64,000 bases of DNA, taken from positions 92,231-156,230 of the forward strand of contig CANQSV010000002.1 in assembly GCA_947626605.1 (NCBI GenBank), in the 5' to 3' direction. This document shows positions 24,243 through 56,324 of this stretch, piece after piece (within the stretch, counting starts at the first letter, position 1; every line of letters begins with the position of its first letter). Under the pieces are notes generated by a model, which saw only the letters and a program-made list of their open reading frames with translations, was not told the origin of the DNA and did not search any database. This DNA is from an uncultured Clostridia bacterium. Lineage in GTDB: Bacteria > Bacillota > Clostridia > TANB77 > CAG-508. The position numbers were made by a program, and so were the translations under genes.

Positions 24243-25628
24243 CTATTGATTCTTTACTAATCTTTTAAATTTTTCTCCTCTTTCTTTGAAGTTTTTAAAA
24301 AATCCATAACTAGATGCTGCTGGAGATAATAAACAATTATTTCCTTTTTTAGTAACCTTTTTAGCTATATTAACTGCATCTTCCATTGTTTCTACTTTAT
24401 ATATTCTCATAGTGTTATTTGTAATTTTATCTGCTATATTATGTCCCGTGGTTGGAAGACAAATTAAATTTCCTATATCGCTATTATTTAAGAACTCTAT
24501 AAATTCTTGGTAATTTATTCCTCTATCCATTCCTCCAATTATCAATGTATTAATATTTTTTATCGCTTCTATAGAATTCATTGCTGATTCTGGCACTGTT
24601 GCTATAGAATCATTATAATAAGTTATTTCGTCAAATGTTCCCACTAATTCCATTCTATGTGGAAGTGGATTAAAAATATTTATCGTTTCTACAGTTTTTT
24701 TCAAATCTAATTTTAAAATCTCACTAACTGCCAATACAAACATAATATTATTAAGATTGTGATTTCCAAGTAATTTTCTTTCATCAGACGAATTATATAA
24801 TTTTACATTCTCATAATTTTTTATAATTCCATTTTCATATATAATTTTATTTTTATCGTAATATTCCCTGTTTTCAAAACTTATTGGATATATGTTATTA
24901 TAGCATTCTCCCATTTCTTTTTTATGCTTTTCAACTACATCTCTAACATATTTATTATCTGCATTGTACAAAAAATAATCTTCTTTTTTCTTATATTTAA
25001 AAATGTTTGCTTTCGCTTCTATATATTCATTAATTGATTTGTAATGATCTAAATGTTCTTCATATAAGTTAAGAAAAATTGAAATGTTTGGCGATTTTTT
25101 TACATATTCAAGTTGATGAGATGATATTTCTAATACCACTATCATATCTTTTTTTATTACATCTATATAATCAAAAATTGGAATACCAATATTACCAAGA
25201 AGTAATGTGTTTTTTCCTTGTTTGCTTATCATTTCATATATTAATGAACTCGTTGTACTTTTGCCTTTTGTTCCAGTTACACCAATTGTATAAACATCAA
25301 AAAATTCTAGTAATAATTCTAATTGAGATGTTATTTTTTGTTTAAATGCTGATATGTCTATGTCCTTAAGCGAAATTCCTGGTGATTTAATTATAATATC
25401 GTAATCGTCTAAATTATCTAAATACTCTTTACCACTAAGGTACTTAGCATTAACATCATCTGTAAGCATTTCATATTTTTCATTAAAATTCTTTTCTTTA
25501 TCTGCGATATATAATAATTGGTTCTTTAAGTATTTTCTTATTATTTTATATGTTGACTGTCCCTCTACTCCAAATCCTAAAATTAATATTTTTTTATCGG
25601 TTAAAAAATTAATTAAATTATCTATCAT
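24243..25628 (-). CDS. MurD-family Mur ligase paralogue (candidate UDP-MurNAc-L-Ala--L-Glu ligase, MurD2-like)
   Basis: Rossmann N-terminus ILILGFGVEG, P-loop GVTGTKGKSTT, motifs NLNN, PHRMELV, NDSIATVP, SPAASSYGFFKNFKERG. Its ATG overlaps the upstream gene stop by 11 nt. Confidence 0.7.
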   Translation of the reverse strand: MIDNLINFLTDKKILILGFGVEGQSTYKIIRKYLKNQLLYIADKEKNFNEKYEMLTDDVNAKYLSGKEYLDNLDDYDIIIKSPGISLKDIDISAFKQKITSQLELLLEFFDVYTIGVTGTKGKSTTSSLIYEMISKQGKNTLLLGNIGIPIFDYIDVIKKDMIVVLEISSHQLEYVKKSPNISIFLNLYEEHLDHYKSINEYIEAKANIFKYKKKEDYFLYNADNKYVRDVVEKHKKEMGECYNNIYPISFENREYYDKNKIIYENGIIKNYENVKLYNSSDERKLLGNHNLNNIMFVLAVSEILKLDLKKTVETINIFNPLPHRMELVGTFDEITYYNDSIATVPESAMNSIEAIKNINTLIIGGMDRGINYQEFIEFLNNSDIGNLICLPTTGHNIADKITNNTMRIYKVETMEDAVNIAKKVTKKGNNCLLSPAASSYGFFKNFKERGEKFKRLVKNQ

Positions 25629-27009
25629 ATATAGCTCCCTTTATTATTTTCTCTTGTTCTTCTGATAAATTATTTTCTTTATTATATCTTTTTAACAATT
25701 CTTCAGAAATATCTTTTACTTCATAATTTTTCTTATAGAATGCTAGTAGGTATGGTAATTTTTCTCCATTTTTTTCTATATTCTTTATAGTCCTACTGAT
25801 TGCACAATTCACTTCTTCATATGTTCCAACACATTCAAAAGGTTTATTTCTACCCTTACCTATTAGTTCTATGAAAGTTTCTTTCATACTTTCGTCATCA
25901 AACATATCTTTTCCAAATATATTGACTATTTTTTCTTTATATAAAAAAGTACTAAGCATTATGTAAGCAAATAAACATTTAGGACATTCACAGCACCATT
26001 TCCATACTTCTCCTTTGCTTCCGACATTACAACTCTTAAATACTTTATGATATTTTTCATATCTTGAGAATATCATTGCTATTTGTAATTCATTTAATGG
26101 TCTTAAAAAACTAAAATATTTTATAGGTAATTTCAAATATTTCTTTGAATATTCTTCAAAATCTTTTTCAAATTCATAGCTTTTTGAATACTGATGATTT
26201 ATCTTTTCTCCATCTACATTTGATTCATTTGCACTTGATTCATTTGATAACGCAATATATTCCCTACCTGTTAGGAAAGCAACAAAATAGGATATAAAAG
26301 CTAGTAAAGATGAAAAAGGTGTATGTCCATTTATATATCCTTTAGAGTTTAAATCTAGTAATTCTTTATCTATTACTCTTCGCACTTCAATAATATTATC
26401 ATCTTTTATCTCAGCAATTTTAGCACACTCTAAAGTTACTGGCTTTGGATTTATTATTAGTCCTAAATTGTCTTCTTTATTTTTTAGTAACTCTAACGTT
26501 ACAACAGAATCTTTTCCTCCTCCAATAGGAATTATATAATTCTTGAAGCTAAAATTGTTATTATTTACTTCCACATTAGAATAATCTTTTTCTCCTTCAC
26601 AAATTATATTCATAAATTCATTTATGTTTGTTTTTATATTGTTTGTGAAAAACAATTCTCCTAACCCATAAAAATATAGTTTTTTAAACCAGGCAATTTG
26701 TTCACTATTTATTCGACCACATTTTATTATTACATTTGGAGAACATACGCATTTCCAATAGCTTATTAGCTCAATTAACCCTATATGGAAAACTATATTA
26801 TTTATATATTCTTTATTATTATCTATTTTATTTACAATTAATCCTTTTTTTAGAATTTTTATTTTTGGCATAAAAACTTTTAAATTTGGTATTTCAAATT
26901 TATATTCAATATTTATACTTTCACTGTCTTCAGAAATTTTATAACTATCATATATAAACTCTTTATGCTTATCCCTTAGCTTGAAAAATTTTATGTTGTT
27001 ATCTACCAT
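25618..27009 (-). CDS. PP-loop (adenine-nucleotide alpha-hydrolase-like) ATP-utilising protein with a C-terminal Cys cluster; candidate MurL-type epimerase
   Basis: PP-loop-like PIGGGKDSVV. Cys cluster C-x10-CCECPKC. Translationally coupled to the MurD paralogue. ATG at 27009 follows GGAGGG; the listed GTG at 27021 lies inside the RBS. Confidence 0.45.
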   Translation of the reverse strand: MVDNNIKFFKLRDKHKEFIYDSYKISEDSESINIEYKFEIPNLKVFMPKIKILKKGLIVNKIDNNKEYINNIVFHIGLIELISYWKCVCSPNVIIKCGRINSEQIAWFKKLYFYGLGELFFTNNIKTNINEFMNIICEGEKDYSNVEVNNNNFSFKNYIIPIGGGKDSVVTLELLKNKEDNLGLIINPKPVTLECAKIAEIKDDNIIEVRRVIDKELLDLNSKGYINGHTPFSSLLAFISYFVAFLTGREYIALSNESSANESNVDGEKINHQYSKSYEFEKDFEEYSKKYLKLPIKYFSFLRPLNELQIAMIFSRYEKYHKVFKSCNVGSKGEVWKWCCECPKCLFAYIMLSTFLYKEKIVNIFGKDMFDDESMKETFIELIGKGRNKPFECVGTYEEVNCAISRTIKNIEKNGEKLPYLLAFYKKNYEVKDISEELLKRYNKENNLSEEQEKIIKGAIYDR

Positions 27010-27206
27010 AAATCCCTCCACTATATAAATATATTATCTAAGTTATATATTATTTTATAATATTTGTAAAGTATTAATTAAATTCATTAAAATTGGTATA
27101 GAAAAACTGTTTTTTGCAGATTATATATATAGTTAATGTTTACCTATAAGTTTCTTCTTATCTCTACCTATGAGTGCTATATTTACTAATTAAAGGAGGG
27201 ACAAAT

Positions 27207-33571: not shown

Positions 33572-34978
33572 TTATTCTAATCCGTTTACAAGTTCTTTAA
33601 ATTTGTTTCCTCTCTCCTCAAAGTTTTTAAACATATCAAAGCTTGCACTTGCTGGTGAAAATAATACAATTTGACCAGGCTTTGCGATATTCTTTGCTAG
33701 TTTAACGCATTGCTCTAAAGTTTTACATTTATAAATATCTACTGTTTTATTTCTTATTTTTGATTCATTTTCTATTGCTTCTATAATCTTATCCGCTGTC
33801 TGTCCTAAAAGTATTACCCCTTTTGTTTTATTTAAAATTGGTCTTCCTATTGGTGTATAGTCTAAATTCTTGTCATATCCTCCTGCTATTAATATTATCT
33901 CCTCTTGAAAAGCATTTAATCCTGCAATTGTTCTTACTGGAGATGTACCTATTGAATCATTATACCATCTAACACCATTTAATCTTCTTACTAATTCTAA
34001 TCTATGAGGAACTCCAGGAAAATTCTTTACTGTTTCTACTGCAGATTCTATATCTACAAAGCTTCTAGTTGCTAATAATGCAGCACATATATTTTCATAA
34101 TTATGTTCCCCTTTAAGCATTGTTGATTTAGTATTTAATATATGTCTTCTTATTTTGTCTTCACATATTTTTATTATACCTTCATCTACAATGAATCCAT
34201 TATCTAATTTATTTTTTCTACTAAAAAATTCAACTTTTCCTTTTGCTTCTAATCCACATTCACGGGTAATTTCATTATCATAATTTAATATTAAAATATC
34301 GTTTTCATTTTGGTATTTATATATATTCTTTTTAGCATCTATGTATTCTTCATATGAACTATGAATATTTAAATGATTTGGAGTTATATTAGTTATGATA
34401 GCAATATTAGGACTAACACCCATTCCCATTAATTGAAAACTACTTAATTCCAAAACCACTATATCTTCAGGTCTCATTTCTTCTATTCTTGTAAATAATG
34501 GGATTCCTATATTTCCGCCTATATAACAATTATATCCTTTTTGTTTTAATATTTCGTATATAAGTGATGTAGTTGTTGTTTTTCCATCACTTCCTGTTAC
34601 TCCTATTATTGTTCCTGGACATAATTTCATAAACATTTCAACTTCGGTTGTTATAATAGCTCCTCTTTTTTCTTCCTCAACCAATTCTCTTGTTGTTGGC
34701 AAACAGCTTGGAGATCTAAATATGATATCAAATCCTGATAAATTATTTAAATTACCTGGACCAAATGCTTTATCTATATTACAAGTTGATAATATTTGTA
34801 GTATTTCTTCTGGCATATTTTCTACTGGTCTATTATCAAATACAGTAATAATCGCACCTAAATCATATAAGAATTTTATTAAAGGAACATTGCTTACTCC
34901 TAAACCTATTATTGCTACTTTTCTATTATAAATATATGATTTAAACTCCTCTACTTTTTTGTTTACAAATTCTTCCAC
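33572..34978 (-). CDS. murD: UDP-N-acetylmuramoyl-L-alanine--glutamate ligase (MurD family)
   Basis: Motifs AIIGLGVSN, GVTGSDGKTTTT, ELSSFQL, NITPNHL, GEHNYEN, PHRLELV, SPASASFDMFKNFEERG. It carries NDSIGTSP instead of NDSKATN. Confidence 0.85.
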   Translation of the reverse strand: MEEFVNKKVEEFKSYIYNRKVAIIGLGVSNVPLIKFLYDLGAIITVFDNRPVENMPEEILQILSTCNIDKAFGPGNLNNLSGFDIIFRSPSCLPTTRELVEEEKRGAIITTEVEMFMKLCPGTIIGVTGSDGKTTTTSLIYEILKQKGYNCYIGGNIGIPLFTRIEEMRPEDIVVLELSSFQLMGMGVSPNIAIITNITPNHLNIHSSYEEYIDAKKNIYKYQNENDILILNYDNEITRECGLEAKGKVEFFSRKNKLDNGFIVDEGIIKICEDKIRRHILNTKSTMLKGEHNYENICAALLATRSFVDIESAVETVKNFPGVPHRLELVRRLNGVRWYNDSIGTSPVRTIAGLNAFQEEIILIAGGYDKNLDYTPIGRPILNKTKGVILLGQTADKIIEAIENESKIRNKTVDIYKCKTLEQCVKLAKNIAKPGQIVLFSPASASFDMFKNFEERGNKFKELVNGLE

Positions 34979-53141: not shown

Positions 53142-54119
53142 TCAAGATAAATATTCCATTTCGTTAATTTTTCCTTTTGTTCCTATCAAATATTCTATCT
53201 TGACATTATCTTCATAAATAGATTTTTTTAATTTATCAAATTTTTCCCTTGAATATATTAAACTCTCATATAATGTATTTATATCAAATTGATTATATAA
53301 ATTATATTCTTTTAATAAATCTATAATTTGATTATCTACTTTTATTTTATACCCATTAATATTAATTCCGCTAAATCCTTTTAAATTTATGTTTATATTG
53401 TCATTTACATTAATGATTATACTCTTTCTATTTATATTATATTGATTTATTTCTTTTTCAGAAAAATCTATATTAATTATTATATCACTATTTAATAGAC
53501 TTTTTTTTCTGTTGTTTACAATTAAAATAGGTATTCCCATCTCATTATAGAGTTGATTTTCAACTCTTTTGAAATACTTGCTATTTGTAGTAACAATCTT
53601 TAATAATTTTATTTCTTTTGCTAAACTTTTTATACTTGCTAGTATTATATCATTTGGTCTATTAATTAGAATTGTAATGATTTGGTTTTTTAACTCTTTT
53701 TTCTGGCACTCTACTATATATTTTGTAGTATCTTGCAATAATATAGCAAATAGCCATCTACCATCTAAAACCTTTAGCCTATTTTTATAAACAATTTCTA
53801 GAATACGTTCATCTTCATTTATTGCATCAGATAATACTACTAAATTATCATTGGTTACCTTTGAACTAATCTTTTTATATAATTTTGAAATTTTCCTATT
53901 TCCTATTTTTTTATTTTTTTCTTTTTTCCAAGGCAATATATAAATTTGTTTATTTCCAAAATTTCTTATCGTAACTATATTAAATAAGTATTTATATATT
54001 AAAATTATTTTATTTAATACTCTATTATTTTGCCAGTGAATAAAATCATAAAAAATATTTTTTTTACTATCTTTTTTTATAATTTCATTTATACTTTCCA
54101 TATTTTTTATGTATATCAT
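53142..54119 (-). CDS. Hypothetical protein (Lys/Asn/Ile-rich, no TM segment)
   Basis: 325-aa ORF between aspS and greA. No motif recognised. Confidence 0.5.
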   Translation of the reverse strand: MIYIKNMESINEIIKKDSKKNIFYDFIHWQNNRVLNKIILIYKYLFNIVTIRNFGNKQIYILPWKKEKNKKIGNRKISKLYKKISSKVTNDNLVVLSDAINEDERILEIVYKNRLKVLDGRWLFAILLQDTTKYIVECQKKELKNQIITILINRPNDIILASIKSLAKEIKLLKIVTTNSKYFKRVENQLYNEMGIPILIVNNRKKSLLNSDIIINIDFSEKEINQYNINRKSIIINVNDNININLKGFSGININGYKIKVDNQIIDLLKEYNLYNQFDINTLYESLIYSREKFDKLKKSIYEDNVKIEYLIGTKGKINEMEYLS

Positions 54120-54176: not shown

Positions 54177-55946
54177 TTATTCTTTTTCTTTTTTTACATC
54201 TAATTTTATATGAACATCTCTTAATTGTTTATCTGTTACATATCCAGGTGCTCCCATTAATAAATCTTGTGCTTTGCTGTTCATTGGGAACGCAATAACC
54301 TCTCTTAAATTTGGTTCATCTGTTAGAAGCATAATCATTCTATCTACTCCTGGTGCAACACCTGCATGTGGTGGTGCTCCAAAATGGAAAGCATTAAACA
54401 TAGCTGGGAATTTTTCTTCAATTACACTCTTATCATATCCAGCTATTGAGAAAGCTTTTACCATTATTTCTGGATCATGATTTCTTACAGCTCCTGAAGA
54501 TAATTCAATTCCATTACATACTATATCATATTGATATGCAAGTATATCTAATGGTTTCATATTATTTAAAGCATCTATTCCACCTTGTGGCATAGAAAAT
54601 GGATTATGACTAAATTCTATAGTACCTTCATCTGATAATTCGTACATTGGGAAATCAACAATCCAACAGAATTTAAATTCATTCTCATCAATTAAACCAA
54701 GTCTTCTACCTAATTCTTGTCTAATTTGTCCAGATAAAGTTTCTACAATAGGACTTTTCTCTGCTACAAAGAATATTGCATCTCCTGCATTTGTATTTGT
54801 TTGTGTTAATAATTTTTCTGTTGATTCTGCATCAATAAATTTAGCAATAGGACCTTGTAAAGTTCTATCTTCATTTACTCTTACCCATGCTAGCCCCTTT
54901 GCACCACATTCACTTATTGCATAATCTGTCATTTCGTCGAAAAATCTACGTGGTTGTTCTTTTACATTAGGAGTTGAAATTATTCTTACTGTTTTTCCTT
55001 TAAAAGCATTAAATTCGGTATTTTGGAAAATCTCTGTTACATCTTGTATAATAAGTGGATTTCTTAAATCAGGTTTATCTGAACCATATTTTAACATTGC
55101 TTCTCTATATGGAATTCTTGGGAAAGGATATTCTGTAACCTTTTTATTTGAGAAAGTTGTAAAAGTATTATACATTACTTCTTCCATTATTTTAAAAACA
55201 TCTTCTTGTGTTGCAAAAGCCATTTCCATATCTAATTGATAGAACTCTCCTGGTGCTCTATCTGCTCTTGCATCTTCATCTCTAAAACAAGGAGCTATTT
55301 GAAAATATTTATCTATTCCTGATACCATTAACAATTGTTTAAATTGTTGAGGTGCTTGTGGAAGTGCATAGAACTTTCCTGGATTTAATCTACTTGGAAC
55401 TAAATAATCTCTAGCTCCCTCTGGTGAAGAACTTGTTAATATCGGTGTTTGAACCTCTGTAAATCCTCTTTCTATCATTTGACTTCTTAAAAATTGCAAT
55501 ATTTTTGCTCTTAATAATATGTTATTTTTTAGTTTTTCATTTCTTAAATCTAAATATCTATATTGAAGTCTTAAGTCTTCTTTCACATCTTTATCAGAAT
55601 TAACTTCAAAAGGAAGATTTTTTAATCTTTTTCCTAGTATTTTTATATCTTCTATAACAAGCTCAACTTCTCCTGTTTGCATATTTTCATTTATTGTATC
55701 TTCAGATCTTAATCTAACTGTTCCTTCTATTGATACAGTTGATTCATTTGGTATTCTAGATATATCTCTTACTTGTTCTGTTTCTCCTGAAATAACAGCT
55801 TGTGTTATTCCATATTGATCTCTAATATCTAAGAAAACTACACCTCCTAAATCACGAGTATTTTGTATCCAACCTGCAATTTTAATTTTTTGTCCTACAT
55901 GTTCTTTCCTAATTTCACCACAATTATGCGTTCTGTACTCATTCAT
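54177..55946 (-). CDS. aspS: Aspartyl-tRNA synthetase, bacterial type
   Basis: OB N-domain, class II motif 2 FRDEDARADRAPGEFYQLDME, GAD insertion, motif 3 G.APGVDR. 589 aa. Confidence 0.95.
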   Translation of the reverse strand: MNEYRTHNCGEIRKEHVGQKIKIAGWIQNTRDLGGVVFLDIRDQYGITQAVISGETEQVRDISRIPNESTVSIEGTVRLRSEDTINENMQTGEVELVIEDIKILGKRLKNLPFEVNSDKDVKEDLRLQYRYLDLRNEKLKNNILLRAKILQFLRSQMIERGFTEVQTPILTSSSPEGARDYLVPSRLNPGKFYALPQAPQQFKQLLMVSGIDKYFQIAPCFRDEDARADRAPGEFYQLDMEMAFATQEDVFKIMEEVMYNTFTTFSNKKVTEYPFPRIPYREAMLKYGSDKPDLRNPLIIQDVTEIFQNTEFNAFKGKTVRIISTPNVKEQPRRFFDEMTDYAISECGAKGLAWVRVNEDRTLQGPIAKFIDAESTEKLLTQTNTNAGDAIFFVAEKSPIVETLSGQIRQELGRRLGLIDENEFKFCWIVDFPMYELSDEGTIEFSHNPFSMPQGGIDALNNMKPLDILAYQYDIVCNGIELSSGAVRNHDPEIMVKAFSIAGYDKSVIEEKFPAMFNAFHFGAPPHAGVAPGVDRMIMLLTDEPNLREVIAFPMNSKAQDLLMGAPGYVTDKQLRDVHIKLDVKKEKE

Positions 55947-55979
55947 TTCTTATCACCCTTTCTAAAAACTGTTTTTCAA

Positions 55980-56215
55980 ACACAATAAAAGAACCTTACT
56001 GTGCCTATATAAACAGGGACGAAAGGTTCTTTCCGCGGTGCCACCCTAATTGAAAAATACTATTATAAATATTTTTCCACTTTATTTAAATTACTCCAAT
56101 GTGTTCCTCAATTATGTTTATTGAAAATGCTCTCAGCCACGGCATTTACTCTCTTACAACAACCTCTAATTGCTCGTCATTATCATCGTAATAATATTTA
56201 ATTTTATGCATAATA
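55980..56215 (-). promoter_or_regulatory. T-box leader of aspS (specifier apparently AAC)
   Basis: On the minus strand: promoter TTGACT-16-TATAAA (56217-56244), K-turn GAUGA, AGAGAG bulge, T-box AGGGUGGCACCGCG (56034-56047), and terminator AAAGAACCUU..AAGGUUCUUU + U-run (55988-56032). Confidence 0.85.
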
Positions 56216-56324
56216 TTTTATACCATTTAAGTCCAAAAGTCAATATTTTTTCTCTCATCTTATCAGACATTTCATTTATTAAATAATAGTATGGAGCTTT
56301 TTTCTTTCTTTGAAAGAAAAAATT

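Follow-up and report, generated by a model that had tools for sequence, protein, structure and literature searches.

The aspartyl-tRNA synthetase (AspRS) gene of this uncultured Clostridia bacterium stands behind a T-box leader whose specifier is the asparagine codon AAC and not an aspartate codon. We consider it probable that the leader serves to induce a non-discriminating AspRS, one that also aspartylates tRNA-Asn, in response to uncharged tRNA-Asn. The gene, aspS, lies at 54177..55946 on the minus strand of the window (the whole 64,000-nt stretch of DNA that was analysed, to which all coordinates refer unless a contig or locus is named) and encodes a bacterial-type enzyme of 589 amino acids, scoring 796 bits on the NF001750 model against a cut-off of 443. 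Searches of the assembly found no second AspRS copy.

In a permissive regional scan the Rfam T-box model (RF00230) matches the upstream region at 56195..56012 (minus strand) over model positions 1–219, with 87.8 bits and an E-value of 7.2e-20. The gathering score of the model is 93 bits, and the leader was missed both by a window-wide Rfam scan at the gathering threshold and by a whole-genome T-box scan. The score falls below threshold because Stem II and the IIA/B element are cleanly deleted: the 40 model positions 106–145 are absent from the alignment, with 1 nt in their place. Rfam scans of relatives find the same element missing from all leaders of clade A, the AspRS clade described below. 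Relatives' leaders score 52–89 bits on RF00230; that of a genome of the same genus (G001) scores 88.6 bits and has a Stem I and T-box core identical to those of the window's leader. With such scores below threshold, leaders of this kind are overlooked by routine annotation.

The leader contains a basal K-turn with its GA motif, a codon followed by a purine in the specifier loop, an AG bulge with a distal platform, a T-box sequence with a UGGN bulge and a mutually exclusive downstream terminator. From these parts it is predicted to be a T-box riboswitch that attenuates transcription and has the short, glyQS-like build, with Stem I, Stem III and an antiterminator and no Stem II. Most T-boxes have both Stem II and the IIA/B pseudoknot, while glyQS-type T-boxes, such as that of Bacillus subtilis glyQS, are naturally without them. 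The aspS leader shares with the latter the reduced build of Stem I, short linker, Stem III and antiterminator/terminator, but its specifier is Asn instead of Gly and it regulates another gene; the likeness is one of build.

All parts lie on the minus strand. About 20 nt upstream of the leader there is a promoter-like site, TTGACT-17 nt-TAAAAT (56215..56243), a candidate by consensus match only (10 of 12 positions) in a region where 3.1 such sites are expected by chance. Within the T-box leader, which the RF00230 match places at 56012..56195, Stem I (56093..56195) comprises the K-turn (GAUGAU opposite GGA), the specifier loop, the AGAGAG bulge and the distal loop, as given by the model alignments and by the covariation seen in its base helix, K-turn helix and distal helix. 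A first-pass annotation had folded Stem I by hand, and its base helix, K-turn, AAUG/CAUU helix, 3′ loop side, AGAGAG bulge and distal loop are all reproduced by the model alignment. A short linker leads to the Stem III hairpin (GGAAAAAU...AUUUUUC, 56052..56078, RF00230 alignment). The antiterminator (56015..56047, RF00230 alignment and folding) then pairs the T-box sequence AGGGUGGCACCGCG (56047–56034) with CGUCCCU in two helices with a 7-nt bulge, within which the alignment puts UGGC at 56040..56043 and C56040 opposite the tRNA discriminator base. Folding identifies an intrinsic terminator at 55977..56033, consisting of a folded part at 56033–55987 with an 11-bp outer stem (GAAAGAACCUU/AAGGUUCUUUU) and of a U-rich tail; it folds at −18.7 kcal/mol (z = −4.65), a value equalled by 0 of 200 shuffles. 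The 5′ strand of the terminator and the 3′ half of the antiterminator share sequence, making the two folds mutually exclusive. Downstream of aspS, after 57 nt, comes an ORF of 325 amino acids without an NCBIfam match (53142–54119, minus strand), followed by greA; this ORF may be co-transcribed with aspS under the T-box.

To place the specifier, we collected leaders from the AspRS loci of 30 relatives and from 80 loci of a species-level genome collection, and scanned them with the Rfam model and with our own Stem I covariance model, for which three hand-checked helices served as anchors. The latter (R2) contains 12 hand-checked pairs and replaced an earlier version (R1) with the 7 pairs of an RNAalifold consensus. 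Two inner Stem I helices, which MAFFT misaligned in half of the rows, were excluded from it. A specifier heuristic based on regular expressions and pairing was noisy near the K-turn and was dropped in favour of the covariance model. In G013 (contig C2, L020) the AAC T-box, at about 860–1035, ends some 465 nt before the aspS start at 1501, and in G021 (L038:3620-3688) the aspS T-box has directly upstream of it a hit to a group II intron domain (RF00029) at 44 bits, more than the gathering score of that model.

In the RF00230 alignment the 3′ side of the specifier loop reads G-A-G-G-A-A-C-A, 8 nt, and is followed by the K-turn helix strand CAUU and by GGA. The covariance-model alignment that the first-pass annotation had proposed as a check thus puts AAC, and then A, at the specifier position. 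AAC is the reverse complement of 56103–56105 and the overlapping GAA that of 56104–56106, as had been reported, and GAC is missing from the specifier loop in the sequence and in the alignment alike. The specifier is complementary to the tRNA-Asn anticodon GUU. The purine at its junction with the K-turn helix (56102) is A in 38 of the 39 AAC leaders and G in one. The register is anchored by CAUU (56098..56101), which pairs with AAUG (56178–56181) and shows compensatory GC/AU and UA/CG changes. In all 27 related leaders outside the seed, AAC and then a purine come immediately before the K-turn helix on its 5′ side. Of the cells in their three anchoring helices 99.4% are paired, and 6 of the 12 anchoring pairs, including the pair adjoining the purine, show compensatory changes. 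Sliding the partners by one column in either direction lowers the pairing to about 40%.

The specifier slot of five other T-boxes of the genome holds GUA, AUC, GGA, UUC and UAC; the genes behind them are valS, pheS and tyrS by family search, and ileS and glyQS as judged from their translations. At the thrS T-box (contig C2:50190-50385, minus strand; locus L006), Rfam and our own model both give CUA (Leu) in the slot. The true specifier here is ACU-A, which an additional A separates from the helix, and the models' slot is one base off, since the bulge is UGGA, all three tRNA-Thr have U73 and thrS lies downstream. This one-base offset means that the codon slot by itself is no proof of a specifier, and we rejected it as stand-alone evidence. 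For aspS, the matter is settled by the alternation of AAC and GAC at one column. AAC with a following purine occupies the slot in 39 leaders, the window's included, from related uncultured gut Clostridia, while four aspS leaders from sister lineages (G027, G022, G024 and G028) have GAC plus A in the identical column, one base apart at codon position 1. Model alignment, covariation and this column together confirm the Asn specifier. The GAC leaders, which represent here the canonical Asp T-boxes on aspS of Firmicutes, have the same gene, leader family and specifier column and the same UGGC or UGGU bulge. They differ from the AAC leaders by the G-to-A change at specifier position 1, and Stem II/IIA-B, lost in clade A, is kept in G027, G022 and G024. 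At three clade-A aspS copies the Rfam and Stem I scans detected no T-box, which counts against the preferred reading.

The same comparison bears on the idea that tRNA-Asp is still the effector, through a tolerated A:C mismatch at the first codon position, or that the leader is a decaying relic. The G73 of tRNA-Asp would fit the UGGC bulge, and the Rfam score is under the gathering threshold. Against this, the loss of Stem II, a clean deletion, accounts for the low score, and the functional modules are all intact and covarying, with a strong terminator. Moreover, all 39 AAC leaders begin the codon with A, with no mixture, while a perfect GAC is kept in the sister lineages, and we consider this explanation very unlikely.

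The first-pass annotation also drew attention to GAA, a Glu codon that overlaps AAC by two nucleotides in GGAACA. The overlap is there in the sequence; its use as a second codon is very unlikely. Of the 39 AAC leaders, 29 have A before the codon, 4 have C, 3 have U and 3 have G, and GAAC is confined to the window's genus (two genomes) and the distant G029. In most relatives the preceding GA is the usual GA(A) motif of the loop, and the GAA overlap is probably incidental.

The acceptor end points the same way. This genome has six other T-boxes for comparison, and in each of them the bulge's variable base matches the cognate discriminator, UGGU going with A73 (Val, Ile, Phe, Tyr) and UGGA with U73 (Gly, Thr); the tRNA-Ile gene is absent from the assembly and its A73 is assumed. 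The genome's tRNA-Asn and tRNA-Asp both have G73 and its tRNA-Glu(CUC) has A73. tRNA-Glu(UUC), which is missing from the assembly, has A73 in the same-genus G001, where the leader likewise has UGGC. Since a UGGC bulge needs a G73 discriminator, tRNA-Asn and tRNA-Asp fit and tRNA-Glu does not. A bulge that paired only with the tRNA-Asp acceptor end had been named as an observation that would speak against an Asn specifier; UGGC fits the G73 of both tRNAs alike. Of the 39 AAC leaders, 22 have C as the variable bulge base and 17 have U; none has A or G. The GAC leaders show the same mix of C and U, so that a bulge U may represent a wobble pair with G73.

These observations weigh on a two-codon T-box in which tRNA-Glu (GAA) and tRNA-Asn (AAC) would both induce aspS, in the style of the Clostridium acetobutylicum NT-box. 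In its favour, besides the overlapping codons, the 8-nt 3′ loop side of the leader belongs to the class reported to permit dual reading, according to PMC4574755, which cites Saad 2013. Against this, the G before AAC is unconserved (3 of 39 leaders), GAA is without the purine-then-helix context, both tRNA-Glu species have A73 while every other T-box of the genome matches its discriminator, and aspS is the only gene under the leader, which heads no gatCAB operon. We therefore regard dual induction as very unlikely and retain AAC as the single specifier.

We next consider the enzyme. In a maximum-likelihood tree of 32 AspRS, the window's enzyme falls into a clade (A, 100/98 support) that holds all AAC-leader AspRS copies of the family; a distant second pair of sister clades repeats the AAC/GAC split. 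In two relatives, G006 (100% complete) and G002, the sole AspRS is the clade-A orthologue, 79% and 77% identical to the window's, and there is no asnS. The aspS of G006 also carries an AAC T-box. With one AspRS each and no asnS, that orthologue must aspartylate tRNA-Asn; judged on gene content, the enzymes of G006 and G002 must be non-discriminating. They have the same L1-loop motif, R-x-E-[ED]-T-I-N, as the window's AspRS, which is most likely non-discriminating too, and these orthologues are the main argument for it.

The residues that relax AspRS specificity were reportedly traced in 2006, by Bernard and by Chuawong and Hendrickson, to His31 and Gly82 in Pseudomonas aeruginosa and to Leu81 and Leu86 in Helicobacter pylori. 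The window's AspRS has none of these, with Leu for His31, Asp for Gly82, Thr for Leu81 and Met for Leu86; Leu at the His31 position and Met at the Leu86 position are as in the discriminating E. coli enzyme. The inspection of the anticodon-binding loop that had been suggested from the first thus finds the marker residues absent. The obligately non-discriminating orthologues of G006 and G002 share the Leu and the Thr and likewise lack the His31 and Gly82 residues. In clade A, then, the published markers fail to predict specificity, and a call based on them is uninformative. The length of the L1 loop was rejected as a marker as well, the obligately non-discriminating genomes having a long loop (G006, G024) or a short one (G019).

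The assembly (1.67 Mb, 28.6% GC, 98% complete) does encode a full-length AsnRS (asnS, contig C12:634-2007, 647 bits), before which the genome T-box scan found no T-box. It also encodes gatB (610 bits) and gatA (679 bits), on a contig other than that of aspS and with no T-box there, while glnS and asnA were not found in the genome. Of the genes that the first-pass annotation had proposed looking for, asnS, gatA and gatB are therefore present and a second aspS is not. In this genome tRNA-Asn has a U1-A72 pair and tRNA-Asp has G1-C72; U1-A72 is the tRNA-Asn feature recognised by GatCAB (PMC4206432). Among 31 related genomes of the order, gatB is present in all 31 and asnS is missing from 10.

Two further arguments from the first-pass annotation carry less weight. 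Two AsnB homologues are encoded in the genome, and the one at the start of the window had been taken as a sign of the Asn pathway. AsnB homologues occur in most relatives, however, asnS-less ones included, so that asnB says little about the route by which tRNA-Asn is charged, and we dropped it as pathway evidence. The genomes that keep AsnB-family genes without AsnRS are G002, G003, G004, G006, G015, G019, G021, G024 and G029. Since free Asn is not directly loadable on tRNA without AsnRS, their AsnB homologues may act in an amidation of some other kind, such as one of the cell wall. The proteome, earlier called conspicuously Asn-rich, is only moderately so (N 6.8% against D 5.9%). As a plausibility argument only, the excess of N over D would put more of the enzyme's work on tRNA-Asn than on tRNA-Asp.

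Taken together, the universal gatB, the asnS-less relatives and the U1-A72 pair of tRNA-Asn speak for the earlier proposal of a non-discriminating AspRS answering to tRNA-Asn charging, while the presence of asnS and the absence of the marker residues speak against it. The AsnRS and the two AsnB homologues count on the other side, as with them the indirect route is not obligatory and the enzyme could have become discriminating. The main rival is accordingly an AspRS specific for tRNA-Asp, with the Asn specifier a form of cross-regulation or an inherited mismatch now that AsnRS is present. It can call on asnS, on the AsnB homologues, and on the missing markers with E. coli-like Leu and Met at two of the four positions. 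It has more difficulty with the strict conservation of AAC in genomes with and without asnS, which argues for ongoing selection, and with the closest orthologues (G006, G002), which are necessarily non-discriminating and share the L1-loop motif. A sole, essential AspRS that sensed only an uncharged tRNA which is not its substrate would also have no feedback. We hold a discriminating enzyme to be unlikely, and prefer a non-discriminating AspRS under tRNA-Asn control.

The architecture of the RNA, the register of AAC and its conservation, the fit to the discriminator and the gene inventory are observations. Beyond them we infer that the leader responds to tRNA-Asn and that the enzyme is of relaxed tRNA specificity, and the following scheme would connect the two. 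Uncharged tRNA-Asn would pair through its anticodon GUU with AAC and through its free GCCA end with the UGGC bulge, and in doing so hold the antiterminator, allowing RNA polymerase to continue into aspS; with charged tRNA-Asn the terminator would form. The AspRS would charge tRNA-Asp and also put Asp on tRNA-Asn, which GatCAB would then amidate to Asn-tRNA-Asn. A shortage of Asn-tRNA would in this way raise the level of AspRS, the first enzyme of the tRNA-dependent Asn route, and the indirect route could rescue the supply of Asn-tRNA when free Asn is too scarce for AsnRS.

A second AspRS paralogue is present in 7 of 18 sampled genera of the family (G003, G004, G005, G008, G013, G015 and G017; loci L041, L042 and L063-L067). 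It has 60–64% identity, an L1 loop two residues shorter and, in the anticodon-binding domain, RNLG(K/G)M versus RDLGGV. No T-box was found within 600 nt upstream of it. One may speculate that clade A is a distinct AspRS paralogue, marked by the GAC-to-AAC switch, its own L1-loop motif and the loss of Stem II, and that it is dedicated to tRNA-Asn where the second paralogue coexists, although we consider this unlikely. Were it true, in genera that lost the second paralogue, the window's among them, all supply of Asp-tRNA would be governed by tRNA-Asn charging, without a feedback of its own. In G013 the genes upstream of the second paralogue are pyrG and an ORF of 181 amino acids. In four single-copy genomes (G007, G011, G012 and G014) a B-like aspS adjoins a divergent asnS. 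G020 has a tandem arrangement of asnS and aspS.

The wiring of aspS to Asn-tRNA is already known in principle from C. acetobutylicum, and nothing is overturned here. According to PMC4574755, PMC11404447 and PMC4206432, the C. acetobutylicum T-box (‘NT-box’, Saad 2012/2013) regulates tRNA-dependent amidation in response to tRNA-Asn and tRNA-Glu. As in the window's genome, an AspRS gene there is under an AAC T-box, in a member of the Clostridia that has AsnRS, GatCAB and AsnB-type genes as well, and the logic proposed here, in which uncharged tRNA-Asn turns up the indirect route, would be the same. On the description in these texts the differences are several. The C. acetobutylicum T-box heads an operon with an extra AspRS (one of three) and an extra GatCAB, whereas here it precedes a single gene, the only AspRS, with gatCAB elsewhere. 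The C. acetobutylicum loop reads two codons, Asn and Glu, whereas here a Glu reading is contradicted by non-conservation and the discriminator mismatch. Stem II is absent here, and the AAC leader is conserved across a family of uncultured gut Clostridia. The window's case thus appears as a single-codon, single-gene relative of the C. acetobutylicum system.

That AsnRS may be kept alongside a non-discriminating AspRS and GatCAB is described for Staphylococcus aureus and Bdellovibrio bacteriovorus in PMC4206432 and its reference 24. These bacteria have the two routes to Asn-tRNA side by side, as we propose here, although the enzymes were assayed there and our case is argued from gene sequence. 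S. aureus has no Asn synthetases, in contrast to the two AsnB homologues of the window's genome. The literature that we found describes no Asn-specific T-box on aspS for S. aureus or B. bacteriovorus.

If the preferred reading is correct, a single base change has, throughout a lineage, redirected the T-box of a synthetase with two tRNA substrates to the second of them. The AAC leader is common to about 40 species of uncultured gut Clostridia, with the GAC sister lineages as natural controls. The same reading would mean that a cell may couple its one AspRS to the demand for Asn-tRNA even when AsnRS is present.

Two minor observations concern other genes. Extra class IIb synthetase-like genes of 435–474 amino acids, with 210–250 bits on the asnS model and so below its cut-off, occur in four relatives (G017:C9, G020:C1, G025:C16 and G030:C17) and may be archaeal-type AspRS or AsnRS-like paralogues; none was found in the window's genome. 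The window also contains two MurD-family genes (24243–27021 and 33572–34978, minus strand), one of which is coupled with the gene for a MurL-like epimerase (NF041275, 230 bits).
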